64,000 nt of DNA from Betaproteobacteria bacterium. GTDB taxonomy: Bacteria; Pseudomonadota; Gammaproteobacteria; Burkholderiales; SG8-41. The stretch spans positions 15,007-79,006 of the forward strand of contig JAHFRL010000007.1 in the NCBI GenBank assembly GCA_023266235.1, read 5' to 3'. Position 1 is the stretch's first letter, and each line of letters starts with the position of its first letter. Under the pieces are notes generated by a model. The model had not been told where the DNA came from. It ran no database searches and saw nothing but the letters and a program-made list of their open reading frames with translations. Of the stretch, positions 1 through 23,332 are shown in pieces. Made by a program: the position numbers and the translations under genes.

Positions 1-496
1 GAGCGAGCGCGAAGTCCGGCTTGAGTTGCAGCGCCGCGTGCAAATGAGCGAGCGCGTCGCCGAATTGCTTCTGCTCTTCGCACAGCTTTGCGTAGCCGTG
101 GTGCGCCTCGGCGTAATCGGGTTGCAAGCGCAGAGCGGTCTCGAAGTTGCGACGCGCCTCGGCGTAACGCTTGCAGTCGAGGTCGACGACACCGAGATAA
201 AACCAGGCCGCGGCCAAATCCGGCTTGAAAGTTACAGCCAGCAGCAGGCAGTCGCCGGCATCCTCGAGCTGCGATTGCTTGCGCATTATGAGGCCGAGAT
301 AAAAATGCGCTTCCGCCAGATCATGTTTGAGTTCGAGCGCGTGCCTGAAAGCCCGTGCCGCCGGCTCCAGCTGGCCGCGTTGAAAATGTTCCATACCCTG
401 AATATAGGCTGCTGCGGCCTGCTCGTGCGTCGACGCCAGCGTTGCGTCCGGCACAGCCGCCCGGTTTGGCGCGGGCGCGGAGCCAAACCAGCGCAT
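1..496 (-). CDS. TPR-repeat protein, N-terminal part (gene runs off the left edge)
   Basis: My own minus-strand translation from ATG 496-494 gives MRWFGSAPAPNRAAV...AYIQGMEHFQRGQLEPAARAFRHALELKHDLAEAHFYLGLIM...AAAWFYLGVVDLDCKRYAEA...AEAHHGYAKL, i.e. consecutive TPR units. The start shares one base with the TGA of the upstream gene (TGATG). It is missing from the ORF track because it is open at the edge. The + ORF 26..637 is its antisense shadow. Confidence 0.7.
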   Translation of the reverse strand, partial: MRWFGSAPAPNRAAVPDATLASTHEQAAAAYIQGMEHFQRGQLEPAARAFRHALELKHDLAEAHFYLGLIMRKQSQLEDAGDCLLLAVTFKPDLAAAWFYLGVVDLDCKRYAEARRNFETALRLQPDYAEAHHGYAKLCEEQKQFGDALAHLHAALQLKPDFALA

Positions 497-2286
497 CAGG
501 CGGTCGAGCACGCCGCAAAATCCGTGCGCAAGCTGTGGGCAACCTGCTGCATCACTGGAATCCAGTCGCGCGGCTGCACTTGTCTGAACAGGCGCGCGGA
601 TGGATACCACGGCGTCGCATTCCCGCTGTGCGGATAACGCCACTCGGCGCTGAATGGCAGCAGCACCCATAGCGGCTGGCCGAGCGCACCGGCCAGGTGC
701 GCGACGGTGTTGTCGACGCTGATCACGAGATCGAGCGCCGAAATCACGGCCGCAAGCTCGTCGAGATTGCTTGCCGCGTCCCCCGCCTCGCGGACCGCAA
801 CGTGGTGGCGGTCGCGCAGTTCCAGCAGCTCGGCTTTGCAATCGCCGTACTGCAGGCTGACAAATTCAAATTCCCGCTGTCCAATTACCGGTATCCAGTC
901 CGCCAGCTGCGTGGAGCGTAACAATTGCCGGTTGCGCAAGGTGCCGCCGCGCCACGCGATGCCGATGCGGACCGGCTTGCCGGGCGTATCGAGTATGCGG
1001 CGCCAGCCCTCAATGCGCGCGGGATCCGCCATCAGGTAACCGCCGCGTGCGGGAAAGTCCACGCGCGCGCGCCGGAAATGCGCAGGCAGCGACCCGATGG
1101 GTGTCTGGTAATCGAGCTGCGGAAGCGCACTGACCCAGTCCCGGTCCTCGTTCTTGTCGGCGCCGCGCACCGTCGCCGGCGTGAAAGAGCGCGCGAACAG
1201 ACCAGCCAAACGCGGGTTGCACTCGATCACGCAATGCCCCGCTACTGCCAGCAGATCGGGGACGCAGGACGCGAACATGATTTCATCGCCGAGGCCCTGC
1301 TCCGCGAACACCAGCACGCATGTTTCCCGGAGCGGTTCGCCGCGCCACGCGGGAACACCAAAATCGCGCAGCGGCGTCTCGGTAGCGGCAAAGCGCTGCT
1401 CGTATGCGGCCCAGCCCGCAACGTAGTCCCCGCGCATCAGCAGTGCATAGCAGCGGTTAATCACGGCGTCGCCGAATTGTGGGCGCTGCGCGAGCACGGC
1501 GTCGTAGGCCTGAATCGCCGCATCGAGCTGCCCGAGGTCACGTAGCGCGTGGGCGATGCAGGTACGCGTTTCCAGCGTGCCCGGCTTGAGCGTGAGTGCG
1601 CGCTGAAAACTTTGCAGCGCTTCGGCAGGATAGCCGGTTTCAAGCTGCAACAATCCGAGATTGTGGTGGGCCTCGGCAAAATCCGGCTGGCCGGCAAGCA
1701 GCATGGCATAAGCCTGGTACGACTCCGCGTACTGCCCCAGCCTGAACAGCACAAAAGCGAGCTGGCAGGCGGCGTCCGCATTGGCAGCGTCGCGCTCGAG
1801 TGCGGCACGATAAGCCGCCGTCGCCGGCGCCAGTTCGCCGCGCGCCTTCAATACATTGCCGAGGTGTAACCAAGTGACGGCCGAAGCGGGTTCCAGCGCC
1901 AGCGCCTGGCGGCACGCCGCTTCCGCCGCTTCGTATCGGCGCAGCGCAAGCAACGCGGCGCCCAGGCTCGCGTAGGCCGGCGCCAGCCGCGGGGAAAAAT
2001 GAATGGCGAGGTGCAGGCAATCGACGGCATCCTCGGCATGCCCCTGATCGAGATAAACCAGGCCCAGATTATGGTGCGCCTCAGCGCAGTCGTGCTCGAG
2101 TTCGATCGCCCGCACCAGGCTGCGCTGCGCATCGGCATATTCGCCGCGCAGGCGCTGCCGCACGCCCTGCGCGCTCAACTCGGCCGCAGTTGCATCATGC
2201 CTGCCGTCGGCGGCGGCGCGCGCCGCGTTTTTCGCATCAGGCGCAGCCGCCTGCCGTCCGAACTTCGCCAGGAGTCCCCGCAACAT
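496..2286 (-). CDS. TPR-repeat protein with C-terminal GT9 (heptosyltransferase-like) glycosyltransferase domain, paralogue 1
   Basis: ORF 496..2460. TPR units include AEAHHNLGLVYLDQGHAEDA and AEAHHNLGLLQLETGYPAEA. The C-terminal ~300 aa carry VFAEQGLGDEIMFASCVPDLL and LVISVDNTVAHLAGALGQPLWVLLP, a pattern I recognise as GT9/GT-B. I moved the start to ATG 2286 (MLRGLLAKFGR) because the upstream gene ends at 2306. Confidence 0.8.
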   Translation of the reverse strand: MLRGLLAKFGRQAAAPDAKNAARAAADGRHDATAAELSAQGVRQRLRGEYADAQRSLVRAIELEHDCAEAHHNLGLVYLDQGHAEDAVDCLHLAIHFSPRLAPAYASLGAALLALRRYEAAEAACRQALALEPASAVTWLHLGNVLKARGELAPATAAYRAALERDAANADAACQLAFVLFRLGQYAESYQAYAMLLAGQPDFAEAHHNLGLLQLETGYPAEALQSFQRALTLKPGTLETRTCIAHALRDLGQLDAAIQAYDAVLAQRPQFGDAVINRCYALLMRGDYVAGWAAYEQRFAATETPLRDFGVPAWRGEPLRETCVLVFAEQGLGDEIMFASCVPDLLAVAGHCVIECNPRLAGLFARSFTPATVRGADKNEDRDWVSALPQLDYQTPIGSLPAHFRRARVDFPARGGYLMADPARIEGWRRILDTPGKPVRIGIAWRGGTLRNRQLLRSTQLADWIPVIGQREFEFVSLQYGDCKAELLELRDRHHVAVREAGDAASNLDELAAVISALDLVISVDNTVAHLAGALGQPLWVLLPFSAEWRYPHSGNATPWYPSARLFRQVQPRDWIPVMQQVAHSLRTDFAACSTA

Positions 2287-2305
2287 CGTGAGGATGATTC
2301 CGATC

Positions 2306-2956
2306 TCAGGTACCGCTGACCTGCTGCGCGCGAGCCGCGGCATTTTCGTGGTCACCGTGAGCTTCGACCAGGAGCTTCCAGGTGACGCCTGGATGATCTC
2401 TGGCGGCCACCCCGAACAGCGCTCTCCACCACTCCAGCGGGCGCACGGTACAGTGCGCATTTTCGCCGTTGGGCAAAGTAGTCAACGCGGGGTAGCACGC
2501 AACGCTGGCAAACACGAAGCGGGTCGCGTAGCCGAATATCTCGGCAACGATCCAGGGCACATCCTGCTCCGGGCAATGCTCGAGTACATCGGTTGAGATC
2601 ACACCGTCGAACGTCCCCTCTGGCAGGTTGCTGTAACGTGCATAGCACGGGTCGTAACAGCAAACCTCGTCCACATCCCAGTAATCGATCACGCCGTCCC
2701 AGGTGCCCTCGCCCGGAATGGCGATTTTTCCGGGCCCGTATTGGTAACCCTTGCCGCATCCGTAATCAAGGAGGGTGCGGGCTCCCGTGCTGTCGATCAG
2801 AGCCTTGATGCGTTTGGCGTGTGGCAACATGCTGGCGCCGGGGTAAGTTTCGTCAGCGGACAGACCGAGCCGCTGTTCGCCCTCACTGTGCAGACGGCGA
2901 TATAACACCGTCAGTTCCTGGTAACGGGGGCTGGGGTTGTGCCGGGTAAATATCAT
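2306..2956 (-). CDS. class I SAM-dependent methyltransferase (paralogue of 9550..10206)
   Basis: LLDYGCGKGYQYGPG (GxGxG motif I) and DGVISTDVLEHCPEQDVPWIV. ATG 2956 was chosen by alignment with the paralogue (MIFTRHNPSPRY vs MNYSRTNPSSRY). The track start at 3016 is a TTG. Confidence 0.8.
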   Translation of the reverse strand: MIFTRHNPSPRYQELTVLYRRLHSEGEQRLGLSADETYPGASMLPHAKRIKALIDSTGARTLLDYGCGKGYQYGPGKIAIPGEGTWDGVIDYWDVDEVCCYDPCYARYSNLPEGTFDGVISTDVLEHCPEQDVPWIVAEIFGYATRFVFASVACYPALTTLPNGENAHCTVRPLEWWRALFGVAARDHPGVTWKLLVEAHGDHENAAARAQQVSGT

Positions 2957-3086
2957 ATCGGTCCAGTCTTGTTTCTCAACAAACGGTCGCGCCGCAGCGA
3001 ATCCGGAAATTTTCAATCAGGGTTGCCGCCTCATCTTTGCACAGGGAGGTAATCACGGCAAGTAATGGCCGGAATGCCGGAGCCTG

Positions 3087-4718
3087 CTATCCGAAGTTCA
3101 GCGGCCGGCCATAAGCCTGCTTGGCCAATTGCGCGACCGCACCTGCCTCGCGCACGCTGGCAAGCCGGTTCAGGTCGCGGTTACCGCCGCCCGCGACCAG
3201 CTCAGCCGTCGCCTCGATCTCCTGCCGGGAATCGTAAACGGCGTAGAAGTGATACCCGTGCTGCCGCAGCAATGCGCTGAGCCGGGCTTGACTCTGGCCG
3301 CCCACGACCTCGATCAGCAAATCCGGACGGCACCTGGCTATGGTCTGCTGCATGCCGGTGACCGCCGCATGTTCGCTGCCTTCGATGTTCACTTTAACAA
3401 GGCTGACATGCTCGATTTGATTGTGCTCGACATAAGCATCGATGCGCATGCAGTTCACCGCTTGCCCGGCCAGCGGCTGACGCTCGCGGGACGCGCTGCT
3501 GGCGCCGGTTCCCGCGACACACTCGCCCGGGTAAATTTCGAGCGCAACGATCCCTTCGACATCCGCTGCCGCGGCACTGATCGGGTGGATGTTCTTGCAG
3601 CCGTTGAGGCTGATATTGACGCACATCCTTGCGTAATGCTCGGCCCGCGGCTCGAAGCAATGAATGTGTGCGCTGGCCGCTGCCCGCGCCGCCAGCAGAC
3701 CGAAGAAACCGTTGCCGGCGCCGGTATCCAGGATAATGTTTGCGGGCTTTGCCAGCGCCTGCCATAAAGCGGTCGACAGCGGCGCGTATTCGCCGGTCCA
3801 GGCGAGGCTCGCGCAGACCCGATCGTCATTGTTGGTATAAAGGACGAAACTCCCGCCCTCGTAGCCGGTCACGTCAAAATGACCGCGGAACGGCATTTGC
3901 CGCGACAACTCGACATAGTTGTCGCTGTTTGCCAGTTCACGCTGACGACAGAAATCCTGCAGTTCCGCAACGCGCGCGTTTTTCAGTCCGATGCTGCGAA
4001 CCGACGGCGCCAGCAGATTGTGGTGCCTGCGCTCTTCCAGCAGCCTGCTGCGCACTGCGGCCCCCCATTCTTCCGCGGTTGCGGCTTTCGGTCCGGTCGA
4101 CCGCCGGGAATGCCGGTTGATGAAAAAAACCTTCTGCACCTTCGCGCAACGATGGCTCTCCCACATGCGCAGGTAATAATCGAAGTCCTCGCCGACGTTC
4201 ATGTCTTCGTTGAACCGGACCTCGCGCGCGCTGCTCGCCCGCGCGAAGTGCCCCATCTGCAACGTCAGGAACGGATCGAACAGCAGCAGCTCGTCAAACG
4301 AGCCGAGTGTAATGACCTGCGGCACCCGCAGGTGCGGCTCGCTTGCGGTGGGCGACTGCCCGACGATCAGGCCCCACACCGCGTCGAAGTCCACAACGTA
4401 GGGGCCCATGTCTGCAAACGCGCTCTGTGCCATCAGATCATCGGCGTCGAGAAAAAACAACCAATCAGCACCGAACTCGGCGGCGCGCTGGATACCGATG
4501 TTTCTGGCGCGGCTGCGGCCAAGTTTGCCCGTGCTATCGTCGACCGCGACATGACGGAAGCCGACAAATGGCCCGCGGTTGCTGTGCCAGGCTTGGTCTA
4601 CCGAAGCTTTGCATTCCTCGTAGAGACCCGCGTGCCCAGGCCCGATGGGCGTTATCACGGCGCAGATCAACCCTTTGCCGGAGCCGCGGAACAGCTTTTT
4701 TACCGTATCAAACATCAT
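3087..4718 (-). CDS. fusion protein: N-terminal GT2-type (GT-A) glycosyltransferase, C-terminal FkbM-family methyltransferase
   Basis: The N-terminal part has ICAVITPIGPGHAGLYEECKASV and WLFFLDADDLM (DxD). The C-terminal ~250 aa have IILDTGAGNGFFGLLAARAA, CFEPRAEHYARMCVNISLNG and VSLVKVNIEGSEHAAV, the same pattern as the stand-alone FkbM gene at 12191..13036. Confidence 0.75.
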   Translation of the reverse strand: MMFDTVKKLFRGSGKGLICAVITPIGPGHAGLYEECKASVDQAWHSNRGPFVGFRHVAVDDSTGKLGRSRARNIGIQRAAEFGADWLFFLDADDLMAQSAFADMGPYVVDFDAVWGLIVGQSPTASEPHLRVPQVITLGSFDELLLFDPFLTLQMGHFARASSAREVRFNEDMNVGEDFDYYLRMWESHRCAKVQKVFFINRHSRRSTGPKAATAEEWGAAVRSRLLEERRHHNLLAPSVRSIGLKNARVAELQDFCRQRELANSDNYVELSRQMPFRGHFDVTGYEGGSFVLYTNNDDRVCASLAWTGEYAPLSTALWQALAKPANIILDTGAGNGFFGLLAARAAASAHIHCFEPRAEHYARMCVNISLNGCKNIHPISAAAADVEGIVALEIYPGECVAGTGASSASRERQPLAGQAVNCMRIDAYVEHNQIEHVSLVKVNIEGSEHAAVTGMQQTIARCRPDLLIEVVGGQSQARLSALLRQHGYHFYAVYDSRQEIEATAELVAGGGNRDLNRLASVREAGAVAQLAKQAYGRPLNFG

Positions 4719-4775
4719 GCGGATACGCGGTTGTGCACTTGGCCATCAATTTTTCGCCCGATTGACTGCGCCGCG

Positions 4776-6557
4776 TTACCGGCGCTCCAAGCGGCCGAGC
4801 CCGGCGGTGACGGATTCGATTACCGGCAGCCAATCCCCGGGACGGGTTTGGCGCAACAGCTTTACTGAGGGGTACCAGGGCATCCGCTCGCCGCGCCACC
4901 CGTAGCGCCAGTCAGGCGCGTGTGACAATAATACCCAGCAACGCTGCCCCAGCGCGCCAGCCAAATGCACGATAGTGTTGTCGACACTAATGACCAGGTC
5001 AAGCGCGGCGATCAGCGCTGCCAGCTCGTCAGTGTCCTGCAGCGCCTGCGGCCACCATGCAAGACCCGCGCCCAACCCCTGCGCCGCGGCCACGGCGTCG
5101 GCGCAATCGCCGCGCTGCATGCACACGAATTGACAGCTGCGCGACTTCAACCATGGCGAACACTGGTCAAACGTGAGCGAGCGTATCGCCTCGCGCGTCT
5201 TGAGCGTACCGCCGCGCCAACTCAACCCGACGTTGAGCTTGCCGTTGCGTTCGGACAGTCGGGACTTCCACTCAGCGACGCGGGCAGGATCGGCAACAAG
5301 ATAGCCGTGGTGCTGCGGAAAATCGGCCGCGCGCCGGCGCAGAAAGCGCGGCAAACTGCCGATCGCGCTCTGGCGGTCGAGCTGCGGATGCGCGCGCAAC
5401 CAGCCGCGCTCTGCGTCGCGCGGCGCACCCTGCACGGCCGCCGCCGGAAACGAACGTTGAAACAGTCCGGCGAGCCGCCCATCGCATTCGAGAACAACGC
5501 CGCCAGCAAGCCGCAGCAGATCCGGCACGCACGATGCGAACATGATCTCGTCACCCAACCCCTGCTCGCCGTAAACCAGAATGTGGCGTCCGCCAAGATC
5601 GCCCCCACCCCACTCCGGCAGCGGAAAACGGCGCCTGACGTCGCGGCCACCCCGGGTGTGGCGTAATTCGTAATCCGCCCAGCCGCGCTCAAAGTCGCCT
5701 TGATACAAATGTGCGATCGCGCGATTCCAGCGATATTCGATGACCTCCGGATGCGCGGCGATCAAGCGCTCGTAGTGCGCTAATGCGGCGCTGAATTGTC
5801 CTTGCTCCTGCAGGGCGATACCCAGATTGGCCTGGGCGGCAACCGAATCGGGGCACAATCTGATTGCGCGCTCGAACCACTGCTGTGCGTTCGCCGCATC
5901 GCCCAGTTGCGCCAGATGGATCAACCCCAGATTCACCATCGCGGCATGCTGCTCTGGATCAAGCTCGGCCGCGCGGCGATACGAGTCGAGCGCCGCCTGC
6001 GTGTCGCCGGCGCGATTCGTGGATAGCCCTAGCTCAAAATGAAGATCGGCGTTGTTTGGCGCCATTCGCAGCGCGCGCTGCAGGCAGGCGATCGATTTCT
6101 CGATTGCGTTGGCGGCGCGCAGCAACCTGGCCATGCCGTGCAGCGCACGCACGTCATCCGGCGCGTGCGCCAGCGCGATCTCGAAGCAGTCGCGCGCCTG
6201 TTCGTGGTCGCCGAGTTCGAGACTGGTCTCGCCCTGCCCGAGCAAGGCGTCGACATACTCCGGTTCGAGCTCGGCGGCGCGCTCGAAACTTGCGCGCGCC
6301 GTCTCGAGTTGCCCGGACGCCCGCAACGCCGCGCCTAACGCGTGGTGCGCGACCGCGAAATCCGGACGCAGATGCAATGCCGTCTGGAAGTGCTTCACCG
6401 CGAACGGAAGATCGCTGCGCGCCAGCGCCAAGCTGCCCGCGAGGTGTTCCCAGTCCGCACGGTCGCAGCGCTCCGCGGGGCCGGCGAGCCTGCGTTCAAC
6501 CGCCGCACAATCCGCAGCCGCCAGCGCGTCCAGGCCTTCATGGAGCCACTGCGACAT
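4776..6557 (-). CDS. TPR-repeat protein with C-terminal GT9-like glycosyltransferase domain, paralogue 2
   Basis: ORF 4776..6659. TPR units include DFAVAHHALGAALRASGQLETA and PEYVDALLGQGETSLELGDHEQA. It also has VYGEQGLGDEIMFASCVPDLL and LVISVDNTIVHLAGALGQRCWVLLS. The start is uncertain: TTG 6659 or ATG 6557 (MSQWLHEGL). Confidence 0.75.
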   Translation of the reverse strand: MSQWLHEGLDALAAADCAAVERRLAGPAERCDRADWEHLAGSLALARSDLPFAVKHFQTALHLRPDFAVAHHALGAALRASGQLETARASFERAAELEPEYVDALLGQGETSLELGDHEQARDCFEIALAHAPDDVRALHGMARLLRAANAIEKSIACLQRALRMAPNNADLHFELGLSTNRAGDTQAALDSYRRAAELDPEQHAAMVNLGLIHLAQLGDAANAQQWFERAIRLCPDSVAAQANLGIALQEQGQFSAALAHYERLIAAHPEVIEYRWNRAIAHLYQGDFERGWADYELRHTRGGRDVRRRFPLPEWGGGDLGGRHILVYGEQGLGDEIMFASCVPDLLRLAGGVVLECDGRLAGLFQRSFPAAAVQGAPRDAERGWLRAHPQLDRQSAIGSLPRFLRRRAADFPQHHGYLVADPARVAEWKSRLSERNGKLNVGLSWRGGTLKTREAIRSLTFDQCSPWLKSRSCQFVCMQRGDCADAVAAAQGLGAGLAWWPQALQDTDELAALIAALDLVISVDNTIVHLAGALGQRCWVLLSHAPDWRYGWRGERMPWYPSVKLLRQTRPGDWLPVIESVTAGLGRLERR

Positions 6558-6703
6558 CGGTTTGCTCAAGCGCACTTTTCTGCAACCCCGCCGCCCATCG
6601 GCATTGTGGAATTTCCGTAGCCAGGTCCGCCGCCATCTGGCCGTATTATCAGGCGGCAACTGCTGGAACCATGCGCCCGCACCTCAGGGGTCGCGGCCGT
6701 AAA

Positions 6704-7393
6704 TCAATCCTTGTTTTGCCCGCGCTGATCAACACGCAGCATCGCCTGTCGTTCGTGGCGCCATTCTTCGGCGTATTCGCAATCGCGATACTCGTCGAAA
6801 TACGGCCCCCCCAGCGTATAGTGCACCAGCGACGCGTCCCGGCGCGGCGCGTTGTAACCGACGAGATGATTCCAGCGGTCGGGTAGCTCGCCAATCAGAT
6901 CGTCGCTGGCAAGCCATTTGAACTGATGCAACTCAAGCCCCGACGCGTGGTTCACGTATTCGGGTGTCAAGGCATGGCATTGGGCGTTGTTGAACAACAT
7001 GACACTCGACCAGTTCTTTTTCTGGTAGGCGGTCTGCGGTTGGTCGAGAAACTTCCTGTTTTCTTTCGGCACGTGCACGTGCTTGATTACCATCACCGCG
7101 TAGCGATCGTCACGCGATGCATACAACTTGGCGACATCATCCAGCATCAGCATGTCGCAATCCATGAATACCGACCAGCCGCTGTAATCCGACAGGTAAG
7201 GCGTCAGAAAGCGCGAAAACGAGAAATCGGTCGACTGCAGCGGATGGCGCTCGCGCGTCATGGTCCCCTTCAAACTGGACAGCATCAGCGGAGCGATGCT
7301 GACCGGCTGCGACGAGCGCACCTGTATGCTGTAGGCGAGCACGCTGAATGCCGCGGCTTCCCGCGGATCATAACCAATAAACACTCTTATCAT
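6704..7393 (-). CDS. GT-A fold glycosyltransferase (GT8-like)
   Basis: MIRVFIGYDPREAAAFSVLAYSI, FSRFLTPYLSDY and FMDCDMLMLDD (DxD). ATG 7393-7391 overlaps the TGA 7392-7390 of the upstream gene (ATGA), which suggests translational coupling. The family assignment is from memory only. Confidence 0.6.
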   Translation of the reverse strand: MIRVFIGYDPREAAAFSVLAYSIQVRSSQPVSIAPLMLSSLKGTMTRERHPLQSTDFSFSRFLTPYLSDYSGWSVFMDCDMLMLDDVAKLYASRDDRYAVMVIKHVHVPKENRKFLDQPQTAYQKKNWSSVMLFNNAQCHALTPEYVNHASGLELHQFKWLASDDLIGELPDRWNHLVGYNAPRRDASLVHYTLGGPYFDEYRDCEYAEEWRHERQAMLRVDQRGQNKD

Positions 7394-9234
7394 GTTGCCG
7401 GTCCTTTCTCTGTTGAGGTTTTCGGACCGCACCAACTTGTCCAGATTTGCCGGAAGCGTTCCTCGAGGTGCCGGGTAAAACGTCCCGCGTCGGTGAGCGG
7501 CGAACTCAGCATGCGGTCACGCAGACCGCCGCGCAATGCCCTCAAACTCCCGAGATCGCCGGCGAGTCTCGTCGCGATATTCACGTAATCGTCCACCGAA
7601 CGCGCAATCATACCCGTCAACCCGATGTTCGTGAGCATGCTCACGCCAACCCGCGATACGTGGCTCTTCCCGGCGAGCGTCACCACGGGCAAGCCCATCC
7701 ACAGGGAATGGCAGGTGGTGGTGGTGCCGCCGAAAGGGAACGGGTCGAGCGCAATATCGGCCTGGTGGTGCAACGCCAGAAATTCGCGTAACGGCAATCT
7801 GCCGTGCAACTCGAGGCGCGAGGACTCCACGCCGTGGGCGGCAAACATCCCGCACACCCGCTCACGTGTCCGCCCGGCAGGCAGCGTGGCCAGCAGCAGC
7901 CTCGCGCCGGGTACGGCCGACAGGATCCTGGACCAGGCCTGCACGACCTGCGGCGTGAGCTTGGACAACGCGTTGAACGAGCCGAAAATCAGCCTGCCGG
8001 ATTGCGCCGCCGGCAGATCGTTGACGGCCGGGCTGTCGTCGGGCGGACGGAATACCATGTAGATGTCGGGCATTCTGATCAGCTGCTCGGTGTGCAGGTG
8101 CTCGGTCATGCCCGGCGGGTCCGCGAGCGCATCGGTGATGCGGTAGTCCATCACCGACATGCCGGTGGTGTTCGCATATCCGTTCCAGGTTACCTGGATG
8201 GGTGCCGGCTTGCGCGCGAACACCGGCAGCCGGTTTTTTTTCGTGTGCCCGGTCAGGTCCACCAGGATGTCTATCCTGTCCCTGAGTATCTGTTCTGCCA
8301 GTTCTTCGTCGGTTAAATGCGCGCACTCGCGCCATTCGCTGCTGAATTGCCTCAACCGTGCCGTGTATTCGTCCGCCTGGAGCACATCGGAGTAACAAAA
8401 AATCTGAAACTGCCGCGCATCGTGGCATGCCAGCACCGGCTCGAAAAAATAAGCGACAGCGTGATTCCTGAAGTTCGGTGATACATAGCCGATGCGCAGT
8501 CGGCGGCCGGGCACGGCCTCGTTGGCGTGGTGCGGAATGAACCTCCGCAGGGGCTCGGCGTGGCGGCGCGCCCATTGCAGATGCTCCTCAAAGACCCGTT
8601 GCGGTTCATAGCCTGGATCGAAATTGAGGGCGTAAACGTAGTTGCTGTGCGCCACGACGAACGACGGCCGCAGCGTGGACGCGCGGCGGTAGCAATCGAT
8701 GGCCTCCGCGAGCCTGCCCTCGAGATGCAGCAGATTCCCCAGATTGTAGACGGCCTCGGCGAAATCCGGCCGCAACCCGAGTGCCCTGCGATACGAGAGT
8801 TCCGCTTCATCCAGCCTGCCAGCGGCTGTCAGCGTGTTCCCCAGGCTGCTCAGGGCTTCGGCAAAATCGGGCCTCAAGTCGAGAGCTTTTTCAAAGCACT
8901 GGGTGGCGCACTCGTATTTTCCGAGGGCATTCAGCGCCCCGCCCAGGTTGTAGCACACCTCGGCGGATTGCGGCTGCAGCGAAGTCACGCGTTCGAGCAA
9001 CGCCACCGCCTCGTGATGCCTGCGTTGCAGCATCAAATTGCTCGCGAGCAGATGCATCACATCGGCATGCGGCGGACCCGCCCCGAGCAGCGCCCGGTAG
9101 ATGGTTTCAGCCTCGGCCAAGCGCCCGCTTTGTTGATGCCCGAGCGCGGCGCGCAACTGCTCCTCCATCGGACCCGCCTCGCGCGCGGTTTCGCGCTTGA
9201 GCCTGAACAGCTGTCCGAGCAGGCTTTTCAGCAC
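7390..9234 (-). CDS. TPR-repeat protein with C-terminal GT41 (SPINDLY / O-GlcNAc-transferase-like) domain
   Basis: TPR units in the first ~200 aa. These are followed by RLRIGYVSPNFRNHAVAYFFEPVLACHD, LIFGSFNALSKLTPQVVQAWSRIL and DIALDPFPFGGTTTTCHSLWMGLPVVTLAG, which are typical of bacterial SPY/OGT homologues. The start at 9234 is GTG (MLKSLLGQLFR). Confidence 0.8.
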   Translation of the reverse strand: MLKSLLGQLFRLKRETAREAGPMEEQLRAALGHQQSGRLAEAETIYRALLGAGPPHADVMHLLASNLMLQRRHHEAVALLERVTSLQPQSAEVCYNLGGALNALGKYECATQCFEKALDLRPDFAEALSSLGNTLTAAGRLDEAELSYRRALGLRPDFAEAVYNLGNLLHLEGRLAEAIDCYRRASTLRPSFVVAHSNYVYALNFDPGYEPQRVFEEHLQWARRHAEPLRRFIPHHANEAVPGRRLRIGYVSPNFRNHAVAYFFEPVLACHDARQFQIFCYSDVLQADEYTARLRQFSSEWRECAHLTDEELAEQILRDRIDILVDLTGHTKKNRLPVFARKPAPIQVTWNGYANTTGMSVMDYRITDALADPPGMTEHLHTEQLIRMPDIYMVFRPPDDSPAVNDLPAAQSGRLIFGSFNALSKLTPQVVQAWSRILSAVPGARLLLATLPAGRTRERVCGMFAAHGVESSRLELHGRLPLREFLALHHQADIALDPFPFGGTTTTCHSLWMGLPVVTLAGKSHVSRVGVSMLTNIGLTGMIARSVDDYVNIATRLAGDLGSLRALRGGLRDRMLSSPLTDAGRFTRHLEERFRQIWTSWCGPKTSTEKGPAT

Positions 9235-9325
9235 CGGCGGGCCCTGTCCGCGAAGTCAGGCCAACGGTATCCGGCGCGTTGCATCCCGCTGCGGGGTCCG
9301 GTGGAGCGTGGAGCAGGAGTCCTCA

Positions 9326-9341
9326 CTTGTGGGGATGCGAC
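9326..9341. repeat. short intergenic repeat, motif 1 (CTTGTGGGGATGCGAC)
   Basis: A 16-mer that matches 14186..14201 (CTTGTGGGGATGTGAC) at 15 of 16 positions. Both copies lie in non-coding gaps of the transferase island. Confidence 0.5.
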
Positions 9342-9458
9342 TGTGGAACCAGCCATAAGCGCGTCGCCACCGTCCCTATGCGCGTCTTCACGGTCGATCC
9401 CCAGCCGGTGCCTCTGTTCCGCGCTACGACGCGCACATTCATTGACAAGCCGACAGAA

Positions 9459-9475
9459 CCTGTTCCGCCCTCAGC
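9459..9475. repeat. short intergenic repeat, motif 2 (inverted copy)
   Basis: CCTGTTCCGCCCTCAGC. Its reverse complement GCTGAGGGCGGAACAGG matches 14161..14178 (GCTGAGAGGCGGAACAGG) apart from a 1-nt indel. Confidence 0.5.
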
Positions 9476-9549
9476 GGGCGCAGGGGTGAGAGCCGGGCGA
9501 CGTCAATCATTAACGTAAAGCCCGAAAGACCTGCACGCGCCTGCTCCGG

Positions 9550-10206
9550 TCATGCCGGGCTTCCCAGCCGTTGCTCAATCAGCTGCGCGCCATTGTCAGA
9601 CTTGATCTGGGATTGAACCCAGAACTCCCAGCTTACGCCCGGATGACGCGCGGCAATGTCCCGCACCAGGTCCTCCCACCATTCCACCGGCTTGATGGTG
9701 CAATGCGCGTTTTCGCCGCTCGGCAACCGTTTTCTTGCGGGATAGCACGCGACGTTGGCAAACACGAAACGGCGGGCATAGCCGAAGATCTCGTCCACGA
9801 TCCATCCCATGTCCTCTTCCGGGCAATGCTCGAGCACGTCGGTGCAGATCACGCCGTCGAATTTTCCTTCAGGCAGGCGGCTGAACTTCCCGTAGCACGG
9901 GTCGTAGCACTCCAGTTCATCGATATCCCAATAATCAATCACACTCGGCCACTGATTGCCGGCGGCGTCCTTGATGATGCGCGGCCCGTACTGCTGGCCT
10001 TTACCGCAGCCGTAATCGAGTATGGTTTGCGCGCCCGAGCGGGCGATCAGTTCCTTGATGCGATCCATTTGCGCATCGAGACTGAAACCGGGAAAGGTTT
10101 CCGCGGCGGGTGTGCCCAGAAACTGCTCGCCGTGCTGATGCATCTGTCGATACATGGCTTGCAGATCCAGGTAACGGCTGCTGGGGTTCGTTCTGCTGTA
10201 ATTCAT
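9550..10206 (-). CDS. class I SAM-dependent methyltransferase (paralogue of 2306..2956)
   Basis: ILDYGCGKGQQYGP and DGVICTDVLEHCPEEDMGWIV. I chose ATG 10206 (MNYSRTNPSSRYLDLQ) because the upstream gene ends at 10235. Confidence 0.8.
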   Translation of the reverse strand: MNYSRTNPSSRYLDLQAMYRQMHQHGEQFLGTPAAETFPGFSLDAQMDRIKELIARSGAQTILDYGCGKGQQYGPRIIKDAAGNQWPSVIDYWDIDELECYDPCYGKFSRLPEGKFDGVICTDVLEHCPEEDMGWIVDEIFGYARRFVFANVACYPARKRLPSGENAHCTIKPVEWWEDLVRDIAARHPGVSWEFWVQSQIKSDNGAQLIEQRLGSPA

Positions 10207-10234
10207 CACTGCGCTCACGTCCGAAATTCCTGAA

Positions 10235-12034
10235 TTAATGTGGCCGGGGAAGATCCCCCTGGACAAGATCACGCAATGATTGTGCCACATTGGCGATGAC
10301 CGGCCCCCATGCTGCATAGCCGGGCTGCCGGAAGATCCGTACCGAAGGATACCAAGGCATCTTTTCGCCGGCAATTCCATAACGCCACTCCGGACTGTAG
10401 GGTGCCATCACCCACACCGGCTTGCCGAGCGCGCCACCCAAGTGGATTACCGCGGTGCAAACGCTGATGACGAGGTCGAGCGCGCAGACCAGCGCCGCCG
10501 TTTCGTCGTATTCACGGCGCGCCTCCGGCCAATCCACGATCTTGAAACCGGTCGCCGCCTCGAGTTCCGCCAGCTCCGTGGCGCTATCCGCGTATTGCAG
10601 ATTCACGAACTGGACGCCGGGAACGTTCAGTATCGGCAGCCATTGCGCAAGCGGAATCGAGCGTGCCGTTTGACGTGACTTGGGCGTGCCGCCCTGCCAG
10701 GAAATGCCGGCCTTGAGGCCGGCTCCGCCCGCAGCCAACCGCCGGCGCCAAACATCGACCCGCGCCGGATCGGCGCGCAGGTAGCCTTGATGCTGCGGAA
10801 AATCCGCGCCGCTGCGGCGCAGATACTGCGGCAGGCTGCCCATCGCAATTTGCAACTCGATACCTTGATCGCGCACTATTGGTGGAAAATCCCGGCTCGG
10901 GGTGGTGGCATAAACCGTCGCTGACGGGAACGATCGCCGGAACAGCGTTTCGAGCTTCGGCGAACATTCCACCGCGCAATGACGGCTTGCCGCGATGACC
11001 TGCGGCAGGCAAGAGGCGAACATGATCTCGTCACCGAGGCCCTGTTCGGCATATACCAGCAGGCGGCGACCGGCAAGATCGATCCCGTCCCAGCGCGGAT
11101 AAGCGGCCGGCCGGCGCGGCTGATCGACGCTCCGCAACCGCAGGTCGTAGTCTTTCCAGCCGCGCGCAAAATCATGCTGCAATAAATAGGCAAGCGAGCG
11201 ATGCCATAACGCGAGTTCGAAGTCCGGCTTGAGCGCTAGCGCCCGATCGTAGCTGGCAATTGCCTCGTCGAGACGGCCCAGATCCTGCAATACGATACCG
11301 AGATTGTTGAAAAGCTCGGCATCGGAGTCGCGGCGCCTGCGCGCCCGCTCGTAATACTCAAGCGCTTTATCGGGGCAGTGCATTTTTTGCAGCGTGTAGC
11401 CCATGCATTTCAGGGCGTCATAAGCATCGGGACGCGCCAGCAGGACCTGGTTCAACCGCGCGAGCGCGGCGTCATACTGCTCAAGTTCGATCCATAGCAG
11501 GACGAGGTTGTTGAGTGCATCGGGCAAATCGGGTGCCAGCTCATAGGCGCGCAGGAAATGCCGCAGCGCATCCGCGCGCTTGCCGCTGCTCTGATAAATC
11601 AGGCCCAGATTGGAGTGGGTGGCCGCATTATCCGGAACGAGTTGCAGGGCGCGCTGGTAGCTCGCCACCGCCGCCTGCTTGTTTTCCTGCAGCAGGTAGA
11701 CATTGCCGAGCGCGGCGTGTGCATCGGCAAACTCGGGGTTGACACTAACCGCCTGTTGCAGATGGATAAATGCCTCCTGCAGCTGCTGCCGTTTGCCGAG
11801 CAGCGCCCCCAGCAGGTAATGCGCATCGACGCTGGCCGGGTCGATTTCAAGCGCGCGGCGGTAATGCCGCTGGGCAGCGCTGTCGTCACCGGCGCGCTGG
11901 CTGCGGTAGCCCTGCTGCAATACGGCGTCGAGCACCTGACGGTCGGCGCTGGCGGAGCGCGCTGCGCCATGGCGGAACAGGCGGGATAGCAAATTGGCGA
12001 GGATCACAAGGCGCCACAGGCATGAAGTTTGCAA
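10235..12034 (-). CDS. TPR-repeat protein with C-terminal GT9-like glycosyltransferase domain, paralogue 3
   Basis: TPR units include VDAHYLLGALLGKRQQLQEA and ADAHAALGNVYLLQENKQAA. It also has VYAEQGLGDEIMFASCLPQVI and LVISVCTAVIHLGGALGKPVWVMAP. The start is uncertain: TTG 12034 or GTG 12007 (ILANLLSRLFRHG). Confidence 0.75.
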   Translation of the reverse strand: MQTSCLWRLVILANLLSRLFRHGAARSASADRQVLDAVLQQGYRSQRAGDDSAAQRHYRRALEIDPASVDAHYLLGALLGKRQQLQEAFIHLQQAVSVNPEFADAHAALGNVYLLQENKQAAVASYQRALQLVPDNAATHSNLGLIYQSSGKRADALRHFLRAYELAPDLPDALNNLVLLWIELEQYDAALARLNQVLLARPDAYDALKCMGYTLQKMHCPDKALEYYERARRRRDSDAELFNNLGIVLQDLGRLDEAIASYDRALALKPDFELALWHRSLAYLLQHDFARGWKDYDLRLRSVDQPRRPAAYPRWDGIDLAGRRLLVYAEQGLGDEIMFASCLPQVIAASRHCAVECSPKLETLFRRSFPSATVYATTPSRDFPPIVRDQGIELQIAMGSLPQYLRRSGADFPQHQGYLRADPARVDVWRRRLAAGGAGLKAGISWQGGTPKSRQTARSIPLAQWLPILNVPGVQFVNLQYADSATELAELEAATGFKIVDWPEARREYDETAALVCALDLVISVCTAVIHLGGALGKPVWVMAPYSPEWRYGIAGEKMPWYPSVRIFRQPGYAAWGPVIANVAQSLRDLVQGDLPRPH

Positions 12035-12061
12035 CGCGGTATTATAAAAGGTTAAGCGCTA

Positions 12062-12091
12062 TTGACGCGGGAAATGCTTCAATCCGATAAT
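12062..12091 (+). promoter_or_regulatory. candidate sigma70-type promoter for the plus-strand FkbM operon
   Basis: TTGACG (12062-12067), an 18-nt spacer, then GATAAT (12086-12091), about 100 nt upstream of ATG 12191 in the divergent intergenic region. Pattern match only. Confidence 0.3.
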
Positions 12092-12190
12092 GTAACCAAT
12101 TATTTCTTAAAGAAAACCTCGGGAACTGCCGAAGCGGAGCAGCGTGCTGCTCGGGAAAATTAGGTGGGGTTGCCCGTCATCATCTGATCA

Positions 12191-13036
12191 ATGAGTGTCT
12201 TCCGCGTATTGCTGTGGCCGTTCCGCCACTACGGCCGGCCGGCCGCGTCTCCGGCTGTGCCGACGGCGTTACCGGCGCTCACGCTCGAGCAATACGAAAG
12301 GCTCGCGCCGGCCCAGAAATTGCGCGAGGGCGATATCGACGTCATCTATGCAACACCGAACACGGCCACCAAGTGGCGGGTCGACAGCCTGTTTACCAAG
12401 GAGCCCGACACCATAGAATGGATACGCGGTTTCCGGCCCGGCGAAATACTGGTCGATATCGGCGCCAATGTCGGAATGTACACGATCTGGGCCGCCAAAA
12501 CGCGTGGCGTCAAGGTATATGCCTTTGAACCTGAGTCCCAGAACTATGCGCTGCTGTATAAGAACATCGTGCGCAACGACCTCGCGCAGCAGGTCGTCGC
12601 TTATTGCGTGGCGTTGTCCGATGAGACCGGTTACTCGCTGCTGCATCTGAGCGAATTCCACCTCGGAGGCTCATGCCATACCTTCGGGGAAAAAGTCGAT
12701 TACAAGCTCGAGCGGCGCGAATCGAAAGTATCCCAGGGCTGCGTTTCGACGACACTCGATCAGCTGATCGAGTCCGGCGTGGTCGCGCCGCCGGATTACA
12801 TCAAGATCGATGTCGACGGATTTGAGCATAAGGTGCTGGCCGGCTGTCGCAATGTATTGGCCAACCCTCGACTGAAATCAATTCTGGTCGAAATCAATAC
12901 CAACCTGGAGCAGCATCGCAAGATCATCACCGACTTGAAAGAACTGGGCTTCACCTATTCAGAGCAACAAGCGGCAACAGCGTTGCGCACCGAGGGCGCC
13001 TTTAAGGGTGTCGGCAATCATGTCTTCCGCCGTTGA
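12191..13036 (+). CDS. FkbM-family methyltransferase
   Basis: ILVDIGANVGMYTIWAAKTRGVKVYAFEPESQNYALLYKNI and DYIKIDVDGFEHKVLAG. ATG start. Confidence 0.8.
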   Translation: MSVFRVLLWPFRHYGRPAASPAVPTALPALTLEQYERLAPAQKLREGDIDVIYATPNTATKWRVDSLFTKEPDTIEWIRGFRPGEILVDIGANVGMYTIWAAKTRGVKVYAFEPESQNYALLYKNIVRNDLAQQVVAYCVALSDETGYSLLHLSEFHLGGSCHTFGEKVDYKLERRESKVSQGCVSTTLDQLIESGVVAPPDYIKIDVDGFEHKVLAGCRNVLANPRLKSILVEINTNLEQHRKIITDLKELGFTYSEQQAATALRTEGAFKGVGNHVFRR

Positions 13037-13820
13037 AGAACATGTGATTTATCAGATCTCCAACGCGCCGATGCGCGAGTACCCGTACCCGCATATCTAC
13101 GTCGAAAACGTATTCCCGGCAGACTTCTATGCGCAACTGCGCGCCAACTGGCCGGATTCGTCGGCGCTGGTGAGCATTCCCGAAACCGGCCGCGTCTCCA
13201 AAGGCATGTATGCGGAACGATTCGTGCTGCCGTTCAACGCCGATGGCATCATGAAGCTGCCGGAAGCACGACGCGAATTCTGGATCGAATTTGGCAATTG
13301 GTTCATGACCAGCCATTTCCTTGGTTCCATGGTCGCCAAGTTCGACCGGTATGTCAGGGAGCGGTTCGGTGATGAAGTCTATCGCTACAGTTTCGAGGCA
13401 GACTCGCTGGTGGTGCGCGACATGACGAATTACGCAATCGGGCCGCATACTGACGCACCGCACCGACTGCTGTCGATGTTGTTTTATTGCCCGGACGACG
13501 ACAGCATGAAGCATCTGGGCACGTCCGTCTACGTGCCACTCGATCGCGAGTTCCGCTGCGAGGGCGGGCCGCACTACCCGCACAATCGATTCCAGAAAGT
13601 CATGACCATGGAGTACAAGCCGAACTCCCTGTGTGCGTTTTTCAAAAATGACCGCTCATTCCACGGTGTCGAGCCGATAAGCGATCAGGATGTGCAGCGT
13701 GATGTACTGCTTTACGATATCCGCGTTGTGCCGCCGAAAAACGGCAGGCCCGTCGTCGCGACACCGCGCAGCATGGGCCTCAAAATACTGCAGCGATTAT
13801 TCGGCAGCAGTCAGAAGTGA
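13020..13820 (+). CDS. hypothetical protein, possible 2OG-Fe(II) oxygenase fold
   Basis: ORF 13008..13820. ATG 13020 overlaps the end of the FkbM gene by 17 nt. A candidate HxD...H facial triad is present: NYAIGPHTDAPHRLLSMLFY and DRSFHGVEP. The fold assignment is tentative. Confidence 0.55.
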   Translation: MSSAVEEHVIYQISNAPMREYPYPHIYVENVFPADFYAQLRANWPDSSALVSIPETGRVSKGMYAERFVLPFNADGIMKLPEARREFWIEFGNWFMTSHFLGSMVAKFDRYVRERFGDEVYRYSFEADSLVVRDMTNYAIGPHTDAPHRLLSMLFYCPDDDSMKHLGTSVYVPLDREFRCEGGPHYPHNRFQKVMTMEYKPNSLCAFFKNDRSFHGVEPISDQDVQRDVLLYDIRVVPPKNGRPVVATPRSMGLKILQRLFGSSQK

Positions 13821-15984: not shown

Positions 15985-16000
15985 CGCGTCGCCAGCCCGG

Positions 16001-18382: not shown

Positions 18383-18455
18383 GGCGGCTCATCCCCTCAT
18401 CTGGCGCTCATACCAAAAACTGCTGTGACAAATCCCATGTCAATCTGCCGGCTGC

Positions 18456-19220
18456 CTACAGTTCGAACACCTGGTTGTTTTCCAGCATGCGCGGCTGGTA
18501 GGCGCCCGCGCACTCCTGGATCTCCTGCATCGTCAGTTCGACCTCACCCGGCTTGAGGTGCGTAATATAGATCTCGGCCTTGCGTTTGAATTTGGCGAGC
18601 TCTTCAGCCAGCATGCTCGGACACAGATGCTTCGACGCGACCGCCAGATTCTTCTCGCGATTGCAGAATGCGGTCTCAATGATCAGAAAGCGCAGGTTGT
18701 CGATCCGGTTGACTTCCTGCCATAACGGATCATTGGTGGTGGTGTCGCCGGTGAATACGAGGCTGGCGCGGCCCGAATCGATGCGATAGCCGACCGCCGG
18801 CACCACATGGTTGGCGGGCAACGGCGTCAATTTGCGGCCGTTGACATCGACGGTCTTGCCGAGCGCAACCGCCGCGTAGCGCAAATACGGCTTCTGCGCG
18901 TCCGGTATCTGCGTGAAATCCGGCCACAGCTTCCAGTTGAACAGGTGCTGGCGCAGGATTTCGAGCGTCGGCTCGATTGCATGCACCGTTATCGGCTGGT
19001 TGCGCATCCAGCCCACGGTATCGACGAGGAATGGAATCGAGGTCACGTGATCGAGGTGCGAGTGCGTGACAAACACATGATCGATGCGGGAAAGCGCATC
19101 GATGCTCAAGTCCCCGACCCCGGTACCGGCGTCGATCAGGACGTCGTGGTCGAGCAGCATCGAGGTGGTGCGCAAATCGCCGCTGATGCCGCCGCTGCAA
19201 CCGAGTATCCTGAGTTTCAT
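18456..19220 (-). CDS. class II 3',5'-cyclic-nucleotide phosphodiesterase (metallo-beta-lactamase fold)
   Basis: MKLRILGCSGGISGDLRTTSMLL and VFVTHSHLDHV (the HxHLDH signature of class II cAMP phosphodiesterases). It starts 11 nt after the cyclase gene. Confidence 0.8.
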   Translation of the reverse strand: MKLRILGCSGGISGDLRTTSMLLDHDVLIDAGTGVGDLSIDALSRIDHVFVTHSHLDHVTSIPFLVDTVGWMRNQPITVHAIEPTLEILRQHLFNWKLWPDFTQIPDAQKPYLRYAAVALGKTVDVNGRKLTPLPANHVVPAVGYRIDSGRASLVFTGDTTTNDPLWQEVNRIDNLRFLIIETAFCNREKNLAVASKHLCPSMLAEELAKFKRKAEIYITHLKPGEVELTMQEIQECAGAYQPRMLENNQVFEL

Positions 19221-19231
19221 CGTCTTGGTCG

Positions 19232-21490: not shown

Positions 21491-21737
21491 CCCGCCTCCT
21501 GTAGTGCTGCCGGCTACCCGGCGCGACAAGAGCCGGTTCGGGCCGATAATGGGGCAAGTCCTGTGCCAGACACGGGGCAGCCCGCGTCAGGCATAACCGC
21601 ACCGTGGACGCCTGGCGCTGCACGGCAGGCTTGACCGGCGCTGGGGACGCGCTGTGACGCCGGCCATGAAATCATTTTGATCGATGATTGAACAGGAATT
21701 GTGGCCGGCAGGCTCTGCCCGGACGGAGCGCTACGCC

Positions 21738-22475: not shown

Positions 22476-22496
22476 GGCAGTATCCCTGTAACCGTA

Positions 22497-23327: not shown

Positions 23328-23332
23328 GGTGA

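Follow-up and report, generated by a model that had tools for sequence, protein, structure and literature searches.

What does an array of glycosyltransferases modify when the genes around it provide neither sugar nucleotides nor a route for polymer export? The question is raised by the left end of a 64,000-nucleotide stretch of DNA (hereafter the window; about 62% GC), which covers positions 15007-79006 of a contig that we label C42 and comes from the metagenome-assembled genome (MAG) of an uncultured betaproteobacterium (G000; 4.63 Mb on 259 contigs, 98.9% complete). Several of the enzymes encoded there join tetratricopeptide repeats (TPRs) to a domain resembling glycosyltransferase family 9 (GT9), and we use the shorthand T9 for these TPR plus GT9-like enzymes. 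An original prediction, made from the window alone, had read the array as a machine that glycosylates proteins, with its target outside the window, and not as a polysaccharide locus. That reading is supported by pilin genes that adjoin the array on its left flank, by the conservation of this pairing in other genomes, and by the lack of export and lipid-carrier genes in the island.

Pilin genes at the end of the array

The array continues 6.6 kb beyond the left edge of the window. It ends at two tandem type IVa pilin genes, which follow directly downstream in the same orientation, 5.6 kb from the left edge of the window: pilA1 (C42:8969-9385, minus strand) and pilA2 (C42:8387-8800, minus strand, with a GTG start). 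Both match PF07963 (N_methyl) and PF00114. The encoded proteins have the leader MKRIQRG/FTLIELMIV and the C-terminal disulphide loop of type IVa major pilins, and Ser or Thr makes up about 25% of their globular part. Only 390 bp separate pilA1 from the last enzyme gene of the array, which encodes a TylF-type methyltransferase. The two genes are the sole PF00114 genes of the host. Given that there are 10 matches to the pilin motif in the host's 4.6 Mb, we estimate that the probability of adjacency by chance is no greater than a few percent.

pilA1 has a strong ribosome-binding site and its own sigma-54-like match, TGGTAC-N5-TTGCT (TGGTACGGGAATTGCT), approximately 70 nt upstream of the ATG, and its stop codon is followed by a strong intrinsic terminator. 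The promoter match and the terminator together suggest that pilA1 is probably the major, separately transcribed pilin. We detected neither flagellin (PF00669) nor FlhA (PF00771) in the 98.9% complete host genome; flagellin is therefore ruled out as the target in this host, unless it is encoded in the unassembled 1%.

To the left of the pilins, a SoxB-like gene (L004 6360-8075, plus strand; L004 is contig C42 in our set of related loci) converges on them, and the pilA-soxB neighbourhood recurs in L008, L037, L041, L043, L047, L058, L069 and L137. Two open reading frames (ORFs) of 580 and 300 aa in the same region were rejected as antisense artefacts of a high-GC genome, the real gene being the SoxB-like gene on the plus strand.

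The island as a whole is larger than had been supposed. The original prediction described 14 kb with three complete T9 genes and a fourth TPR gene cut by the window edge; the island in fact occupies 27 kb on the minus strand and holds six T9 genes, one of them the now complete fourth paralogue, together with the TylF-type methyltransferase gene. From position 12034 down to position 1 every real gene is on the minus strand, and the genes that had been listed are present where they had been placed. The minus strand carries thirteen closely packed genes, some of them translationally coupled, in addition to a divergent pair encoding an FkbM methyltransferase and a 2-oxoglutarate (2OG)-type oxygenase. 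Together these encode nine glycosyltransferase domains, five methyltransferase domains and one oxygenase: six T9 paralogues, one TPR protein of family GT41 (TPR-GT41), a GT8-fold enzyme, a GT2-FkbM fusion, four more methyltransferases and the 2OG-type oxygenase. Long TPR arms are found on seven of the nine glycosyltransferases.

Pfam and NCBIfam scans of all ORFs and flanks, from the pilins to position 13820, bore out the prediction that there would be no Wzx/Wzy/Wza, ATP-binding cassette (ABC) exporter or nucleoside diphosphate (NDP)-sugar genes, and likewise found no phosphoglycosyltransferase. Pfam scans of the island found no Wzz, WaaL or lipid-carrier transferase, the last as predicted, and no genes for the nonulosonic acids (Pse/Leg). 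No membrane protein is encoded between soxB and position 13820, and signal peptides and transmembrane segments are absent from all of the island enzymes.

To the right of the island, positions 14326-21529 of the window encode a GAF-HD-GYP phosphodiesterase, a GAF-MshEN-PilB-type ATPase, a metallo-beta-lactamase-fold (MBL)/class II cAMP phosphodiesterase and a CHASE2 adenylate cyclase, part of a PilB-type ATPase signalling island at 14326-25912. The glycosyltransferase island is thus wedged between pilus-motor signalling genes on its right and pilin genes on its left.

Arrays and pilins in related genomes

A scan by pattern and by tblastn with the T9 alignment, limited to one genome per species, yielded 76 related loci, in which pilin and flagellin genes were sought within 10 kb. 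The same short pilin family was present in 36 of the 76, almost without exception downstream in the same orientation and frequently in tandem, and flagellin in two; most of these loci come from MAG contigs, and the counts are raised by the presence of close relatives. The loci L016, L049, L051 and L055 are from Methylococcus and Rubrivivax MAGs. Gene order is conserved as 2OG< FkbM< T9> MT> (GT41>) GT8> T9> (GT2-FkbM>) T9..T9> (TylF>) PIL> PIL>, where MT is a methyltransferase and PIL a pilin. The divergent FkbM-2OG pair is kept, and GT41 genes adjoin pilins in many of the loci. Because each T9 paralogue keeps its position in the array, we consider the paralogues to be old and not redundant; orthologues of the first T9 gene of the operon, for example, take the same first position. 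No sugar-nucleotide genes recur across these loci, in which a single DegT aminotransferase was found (L041).

We also drew 81 genomes of the host's order independently of best-hit selection, and found the T9 family in 36 of them. Copies scoring >300 bits were classed as close and all others as distant, with a neighbour limit of 15 kb. Ten of the 14 close copies lay within this limit of a PF00114 pilin and one was near flagellin; among 61 distant copies, 13 lay within 15 kb of flagellin and three were near a pilin. In G006 and G067, which also encode flagellins at other sites, the arrays stand beside a pilin all the same.

The association also follows the phylogeny of the enzymes. In a tree of 81 GT-B domains, the label of the neighbouring filament gene requires 4 changes, as compared with a mean of 12.5 when labels are shuffled, and 0 of 500 shuffles gave a value as low, with the reservation that branch support is moderate (Shimodaira-Hasegawa-like approximate likelihood ratio test, SH-aLRT, 86-91) and that near-copies inflate the clustering. 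The clade of 48 that holds the window's copies comprises 34 pilin-linked, one flagellin-linked and 13 unlabelled members, the unlabelled ones mostly on truncated contigs; another set of 27 in the tree has 12 linked to flagellin, three to pilin and 12 without a label. Within the genus, all 16 genomes with close arrays have PF00114 pilins, and the three without arrays, which are only 69-88% complete, have none. We conclude that the island is probably tied to the pilins in function.

Three further features of these genomes are recorded here. In the array of the congener G098 (L137, which is G098:C1:220001-240000, and L138), two T9 genes are split into overlapping ORFs, possibly by frameshifts or assembly errors. 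Genes for proteins of approximately 1000 aa stand between T9 genes and pilins or just after pilins of a Neisseria-like subtype (L033:11787-14831, L033:16076-19108 and L037:9919-12939); their products, with a spermine-synthase-like or a PAP2_3 domain, are candidates for further enzymes of pilin modification. The host itself has a second, more distant TPR-glycosyltransferase cluster (G000 C162:17938-32429), which adjoins a porin gene and has no pilin or flagellin gene beside it. It encodes a TPR-GT41 (841 aa), a small methyltransferase resembling the island's class I pair, an RmlD-like reductase, a TPR-methyltransferase (726 aa) and two distant T9-like proteins of 666 and 532 aa, the shorter with the N-terminal tag MRYLLNVLNALRRR.

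Enzymes of the island

Three T9 genes lie wholly within the window, all on the minus strand. T9_c (10235-12034) is the first gene of the operon, T9_b is at 4776-6659, and T9_a is at 496-2286; the ORF of T9_a is open to 2460, and a check of the start favours 2286. The fourth has its N-terminal part, with Pfam TPR matches, at 1-496 (whole gene, C42:13835-15502, minus strand), and the remaining two (C42:12175-13779 and C42:10580-12178, both minus strand) overlap each other by ATGA. Overlapping stop and start codons that had been predicted were read directly in the sequence: the ATG of the fourth T9 gene at 496-494 overlaps the TGA of the upstream gene at 498-496 (TGATG), and ATGA at 7393-7390 joins the stop of the GT41 gene to the start of the GT8-like gene.

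Alignment confirms the kinship that had been proposed for the T9 proteins. The six paralogues are 38-42% identical overall, with 49% identity in the glycosyltransferase domains and 30% in the TPR arms. Pfam finds dense TPR repeats in 496-2460, 4776-6659 and 10235-12034, with E values for TPR families down to 4e-28 in T9_a. Matches to Glyco_transf_9 are weak and local: T9_a gives E 1.6e-5 and 24.8 bits (cut-off 22) over residues 565-597, 33 residues only, T9_b gives E 6e-4 and 19.6 bits, and T9_c gives no match; PF01075 matches weakly in 17 of 41 homologous C-terminal domains. The motifs EQGLGDEIMFASC, SWRGG, DLVISVxT..HLxGALG and WRY...PWYP are invariant among the paralogues, and EQGLGD and D..H..G..G are invariant in 41-42 T9 sequences. 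An AlphaFold model built with 42 sequences (predicted local distance difference test, pLDDT, 93.8) has 14 TPR helices followed by a compact two-lobed GT-B fold with two Rossmann-like halves. Its top full-length Foldseek matches are SPINDLY and OGT, which share the TPR plus GT-B architecture; since TPR, OGT and SPINDLY proteins dominate this full-length search, it supports the architecture and cannot rank GT9 against GT41 for the C-terminal domain.

The link to GT9 comes from profile comparison. hhalign of T9 with the host's three true GT9 heptosyltransferases gave a probability of 86.6% and E 4.5e-6 over 72 columns at the donor-site motif. T9 has a GT-B fold, an N-terminal GD motif, which is common to the host's WaaC/F-like proteins, and a C-terminal donor motif of the DxxxxHLAAALG type. 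WaaC and WaaF (GT9, PF01075) have the same compact GT-B fold, with GD following strand 1 near the N-terminus and the donor-site motif D(T/S)xxxHLAGALG towards the C-terminus. However, the similarity covers only about 72 columns, and unlike WaaC and WaaF the T9 proteins have a TPR arm of 230-340 aa and are linked to genes for filament subunits rather than for the lipopolysaccharide (LPS) core. Single-sequence and profile searches of the PDB with the C-terminal domain returned nothing, or spurious matches to CHMP1B. We conclude from these sequence comparisons that the relationship of T9 to GT9 is real but remote.

A short tag, amphipathic and basic (M..[LW][LI]..[LW][LF].R), is found at the N-terminus of many T9 homologues and of several further proteins of the island, and leads into an Ala/Pro-rich linker. 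Tag-bearing N-termini on the minus strand start at window positions 2286, 4718, 9234 and 12034 and at L004:12178; examples are MLRGLLAKFGRQ (T9_a), MLKSLLGQLFRLKRE and MFDTVKKLFRGSGKG. The tag could be a membrane-targeting helix or a docking peptide. T9 proteins are named in source databases as 'tetratricopeptide repeat protein', 'TPR/ADP-heptose:LPS heptosyltransferase' or 'TadD'. Many members of the family (P0001-P0065) are approximately 1000-1140 aa long, about twice the 534-aa module, and score about 1000-1260 bits against the module profile; these may be tandem TPR-glycosyltransferase fusions.

The other families that had been proposed from the window hold with differing firmness. GT41 and FkbM are firm in family searches, GT9 and GT2 are weak, and GT8 is recognised by structure. 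The TPR-GT41 protein (7390-9234, minus strand) matches PF13844 with E 1.8e-58 and 198.6 bits (cut-off 25), and has TPR_1/2/8/11 matches in residues 25-200, which places it in the GT41/OGT family; it matches the HMW1C-type N-glycosyltransferase (NGT) model NF049992 only weakly (E 1.9e-10; cut-off 1000 bits). The GT8-fold protein (6704-7393, minus strand), a retaining GT-A enzyme with a DxD motif (DCD), has no Pfam or NCBIfam match by hmmscan. Its predicted structure (pLDDT 86.4) matches LARGE1, LgtC, WbbM, GlyE, UGGT and glycogenin in Foldseek (E 1e-9 to 1e-6, TM scores 0.55-0.70), and precomputed annotation assigns PF01501 to two close relatives. It is the most conserved protein of the island, with 64-83% identity in 30 of 31 aligned homologues, the exception being a flagellin-side copy at 49%. 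Its homologues fall into >8000 clusters at 90% identity, mostly unnamed, with identities of 79% or higher throughout the top 120, and into 761 clusters at 50% identity with E <= 1e-30.

In the fusion protein (3087-4718, minus strand; homologues in 14 related loci), the proposed FkbM half stands firm (PF05050 E 2.2e-13, TIGR01444 E 1.2e-24), and the GT2-like GT-A half is weak (PF00535 E 4.7e-4) but has an LDADD motif. MT_a (2306-2956, minus strand; weak Methyltransf_11/23/25 matches, homologues in 22 related loci) and MT_b (9550-10206, minus strand; homologues in 25) are class I methyltransferases dependent on S-adenosylmethionine (SAM) and are paralogues, as had been predicted, with 57% identity and with the SAM motifs DYGxGKG and DVLEHC conserved in 21 homologues. 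A further methyltransferase, the TylF-type one, is encoded outside the window (C42:9776-10567, minus strand). The stand-alone FkbM methyltransferase (12191-13036, plus strand), divergent from the operon, is also a firm assignment (PF05050 E 4.1e-16, TIGR01444 E 3.4e-27). Beside it, the possible 2OG oxygenase of the original prediction (13008-13820, plus strand) is now a probable 2OG-Fe(II) oxygenase: its PF13640 match is weak (E 1.7e-3), and an HxD (H147, D149), H219 and R231 are invariant in 15 homologues. A profile search of the PDB found no relative of this protein. Within the operon, a gap of 315 bp (9235-9549) contains no ORF with homologues and may be the site of an internal promoter.

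A proposed cytoplasmic route to pilin glycosylation and its alternatives

Taken together, the gene content and the pairing lead us to favour, with some reserve, a dedicated protein-glycosylation system that acts directly in the cytoplasm, with PilA1 and PilA2 as its most likely substrates. Glycosylation itself, and its chemistry of methylated glycans, are predicted from the domain content of the enzymes. In each T9 protein, a diverged TPR superhelix would grip an extended, Ser/Thr-rich stretch of the pilin polypeptide, and the GT9-like GT-B domain would then transfer a sugar to it, much as FlmG does on flagellin and OGT on its substrates. The TPR-GT41, GT8-fold and GT2 enzymes would add or extend sugars, and the five methyltransferase domains and the 2OG oxygenase would cap these sugars or alter them. 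Housekeeping nucleotide sugars would serve as the donors, and this would account for an island without sugar-synthesis genes; ADP-heptose is a plausible one, because the host has three true GT9 heptosyltransferases. The enzymes would be cytoplasmic, possibly held at the membrane by the N-terminal amphipathic tag, so that prepilin would have to be modified before or during its insertion by the signal recognition particle (SRP) and Sec.

Soluble TPR-glycosyltransferases that act on filament subunits are already known. FlmG of Caulobacter crescentus and Brevundimonas, a soluble protein of about 600 aa, consists of a TPR arm followed by a GT-B domain of about 290 aa at the C-terminus, and the T9 proteins resemble it in architecture, as judged by the model and by Foldseek. 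Flagellin is bound by the TPR arm of FlmG, and the choice of donor is determined by the GT-B domain (PMC7591256; bioRxiv 10.1101/2022.03.25.485807). FlmG requires no oligosaccharyltransferase and is encoded near its substrate, as T9 is encoded near its candidate substrate, and the sister set of T9 genes beside flagellin genes recalls FlmG, a likeness drawn from betaproteobacterial relatives with flagellin neighbours. Unlike FlmG, however, the island adjoins a gene for a type IV pilin exported by Sec rather than for a flagellin exported by flagellar type III secretion. It has six collinear paralogues with GT41, GT8 and GT2 enzymes where the FlmG system has a single enzyme, and it shares neither the flagellin linkage nor the nonulosonic-acid synthesis genes of that system.

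A second precedent is Ogt/OgtA of cyanobacteria (Synechococcus elongatus Synpcc7942_0051; Nostoc punctiforme), a TPR-GT41 encoded beside tandem pilA genes; it lacks a secretion signal, is proposed to act in the cytoplasm and is required for PilA glycosylation or accumulation (PMC9306852), the latter in the case of N. punctiforme OgtA (PMC9306852). Similarly, the island's TPR-GT41 belongs to an operon-like array adjoining tandem pilins, a likeness in gene arrangement. The cyanobacterial case involves one enzyme, whereas the island is dominated by six GT9-like GT-B copies in a betaproteobacterial host and adds GT-A enzymes, five methyltransferase domains and an oxygenase.

Glycosylation in the cytoplasm ahead of Sec export also occurs with other substrates. 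The GT9-related bacterial autotransporter heptosyltransferases (BAHTs) TibC and AAH modify autotransporters in this way with housekeeping ADP-heptose, and HMW1C-type GT41 N-glycosyltransferases modify the HMW1 adhesin with housekeeping UDP-hexose. These examples suggest, by analogy, that the proposed topology is feasible. Both types of enzyme are without TPR arms, and their substrates are autotransporters or two-partner adhesins; PDB searches with the T9 C-terminal domain gave no sequence match to the solved BAHT structures.

Several observations weigh against direct glycosylation of the pilins. The main problem is topology: the globular domain of type IV pilins faces the periplasm, such that a cytoplasmic route requires modification before Sec translocation, and to our knowledge pilin glycosylation in the well-studied proteobacterial systems is always periplasmic and always dependent on an oligosaccharyltransferase. 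The PglL, TfpO/PilO and TfpW systems, like the island, serve type IVa pilins and have accessory genes beside pilA, but they use polytopic Wzy_C or GT-C membrane enzymes and lipid-linked glycans in the periplasm, and no such enzyme is encoded in or beside the island. The kinship of T9 to GT9 is remote (72 aligned columns and an empty PDB sequence search), and the conserved amphipathic tag would also suit enzymes working on lipid-linked acceptors. pilA1 is apparently transcribed apart from the operon. In G098 the array ends directly at soxB, and the orthologous pilins are found together on a separate contig; the second cluster of the host, on C162, indicates that members of the superfamily can have other targets; and most related loci are MAG contigs, with counts swollen by close relatives.

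The pairing could also arise in other ways. The topology would be explained if pilin were an indirect target, the T9, GT41, GT8 and GT2 enzymes building a methylated glycan on a lipid carrier at the cytoplasmic face, which would be flipped and moved to pilin by an unlinked Wzy_C-type O-oligosaccharyltransferase, with the TPR arms serving only to assemble the complex. This route fits the known periplasmic topology of pilin glycosylation, the tag shared by many T9 homologues and other island proteins, and the established use of lipid-anchored acceptors at the membrane by GT9 enzymes such as WaaC and WaaF. The host also encodes two Wzy_C proteins, one of them (C193:2251-5091) a polytopic protein of 947 aa with a TPR-like C-terminal tail that could be a general O-oligosaccharyltransferase or a polymerase. 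However, we found no oligosaccharyltransferase at the pilin locus, and neither the 27-kb island nor the syntenic arrays supply an initiating phosphoglycosyltransferase, a flippase or an oligosaccharyltransferase. The Wzy_C genes are confined to other contigs (C189 and C193), one of them beside an LPS heptosyltransferase gene. Moreover, sister T9 members stand beside flagellin genes; flagellin does not pass through the periplasm, so that for the whole family direct protein glycosylation is the more economical account. We consider the lipid-carrier route the main alternative, but an unlikely one. A locus for decorating the LPS core, O-antigen or exopolysaccharide is very improbable: names such as 'LPS biosynthesis glycosyltransferase' and 'ADP-heptose:LPS heptosyltransferase' among the homologues, the frequency of GT9, GT8 and GT2 folds in LPS synthesis, the occurrence of FkbM/TylF methyltransferases in O-antigen loci and a weak RfbT match would fit it, but the island has none of Wzx/Wzy/Wzz/Wza, an ABC transporter, WaaL or a lipid-carrier transferase, long TPR arms are present on seven of its nine glycosyltransferases, linkage with filament genes (pilin or flagellin) is kept in related genomes, and the true LPS heptosyltransferases are encoded elsewhere in the genome.

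The enzymes might instead act on other proteins. These could be cytoplasmic or regulatory targets as for OGT, a different protein of the surface, or components of the pilus machinery, of which the neighbouring GAF-PilB-type ATPase is one; the island would then stand next to pilA owing to co-regulation or because both belong to one variable region. Enzymes of the OGT family modify many different substrates, the PilB-type ATPase signalling island lies close by, and T9 copies do occur apart from filament genes: in the C162 cluster, in the G098 array, in 12 of the 27 rows of the flagellin-linked tree set and in most distant copies of the order sample. Set against this are the clade of the window's copies, with 34 pilin-linked members to one flagellin-linked and 13 unlabelled, the fixed position and orientation directly upstream of pilin, and the co-occurrence of arrays and pilins in the genus, so that we regard other protein targets as rather improbable. 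A flagellin glycosylation island of the FlmG type would share the TPR plus GT-B architecture of FlmG (PMC7591256) and has distant family members beside flagellin genes to recommend it, but with neither flagellin nor the FlhA export gate at 98.9% completeness, and no pseudaminic or legionaminic acid genes in the island, its probability is negligible.

Direct, cytoplasmic glycosylation of the pilins remains the reading that we prefer for this locus. Its extension to other bacteria is more tentative, and we put it forward as a possibility that falls short of being the expected outcome: a third, oligosaccharyltransferase-free route of pilin glycosylation in a broad set of Betaproteobacteria, Methylococcales and others, in which an assembly line of T9 arrays with GT8-fold, GT41, methyltransferase and 2OG enzymes, working in the cytoplasm or on the membrane's inner face, would decorate prepilin before Sec. 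Our literature search found no description of a pilin-linked TPR-GT9-like system, which is the new element here. The paper on FlmG (PMC7591256), like reviews of the field, contrasts periplasmic, oligosaccharyltransferase-dependent glycosylation of pilins with cytoplasmic glycosylation of flagellins by soluble transferases, and a large and conserved set of pilin-linked soluble transferases resembling FlmG and OGT would make this division less sharp.

If the proposal is correct, the T9 superfamily would be one of general filament-subunit glycosyltransferases with pilin-directed and flagellin-directed clades, and a function would be assigned to thousands of proteins whose present names are only 'tetratricopeptide repeat protein' or 'hypothetical'. 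It would raise the question of how a glycosylated prepilin passes through Sec, and would offer modular pairs of TPR arm and glycosyltransferase for protein glyco-engineering, as in FlmG domain swaps. It also predicts that the pilins of cultured methanotrophs and sulfur oxidisers carry methylated glycans that depend on such islands.

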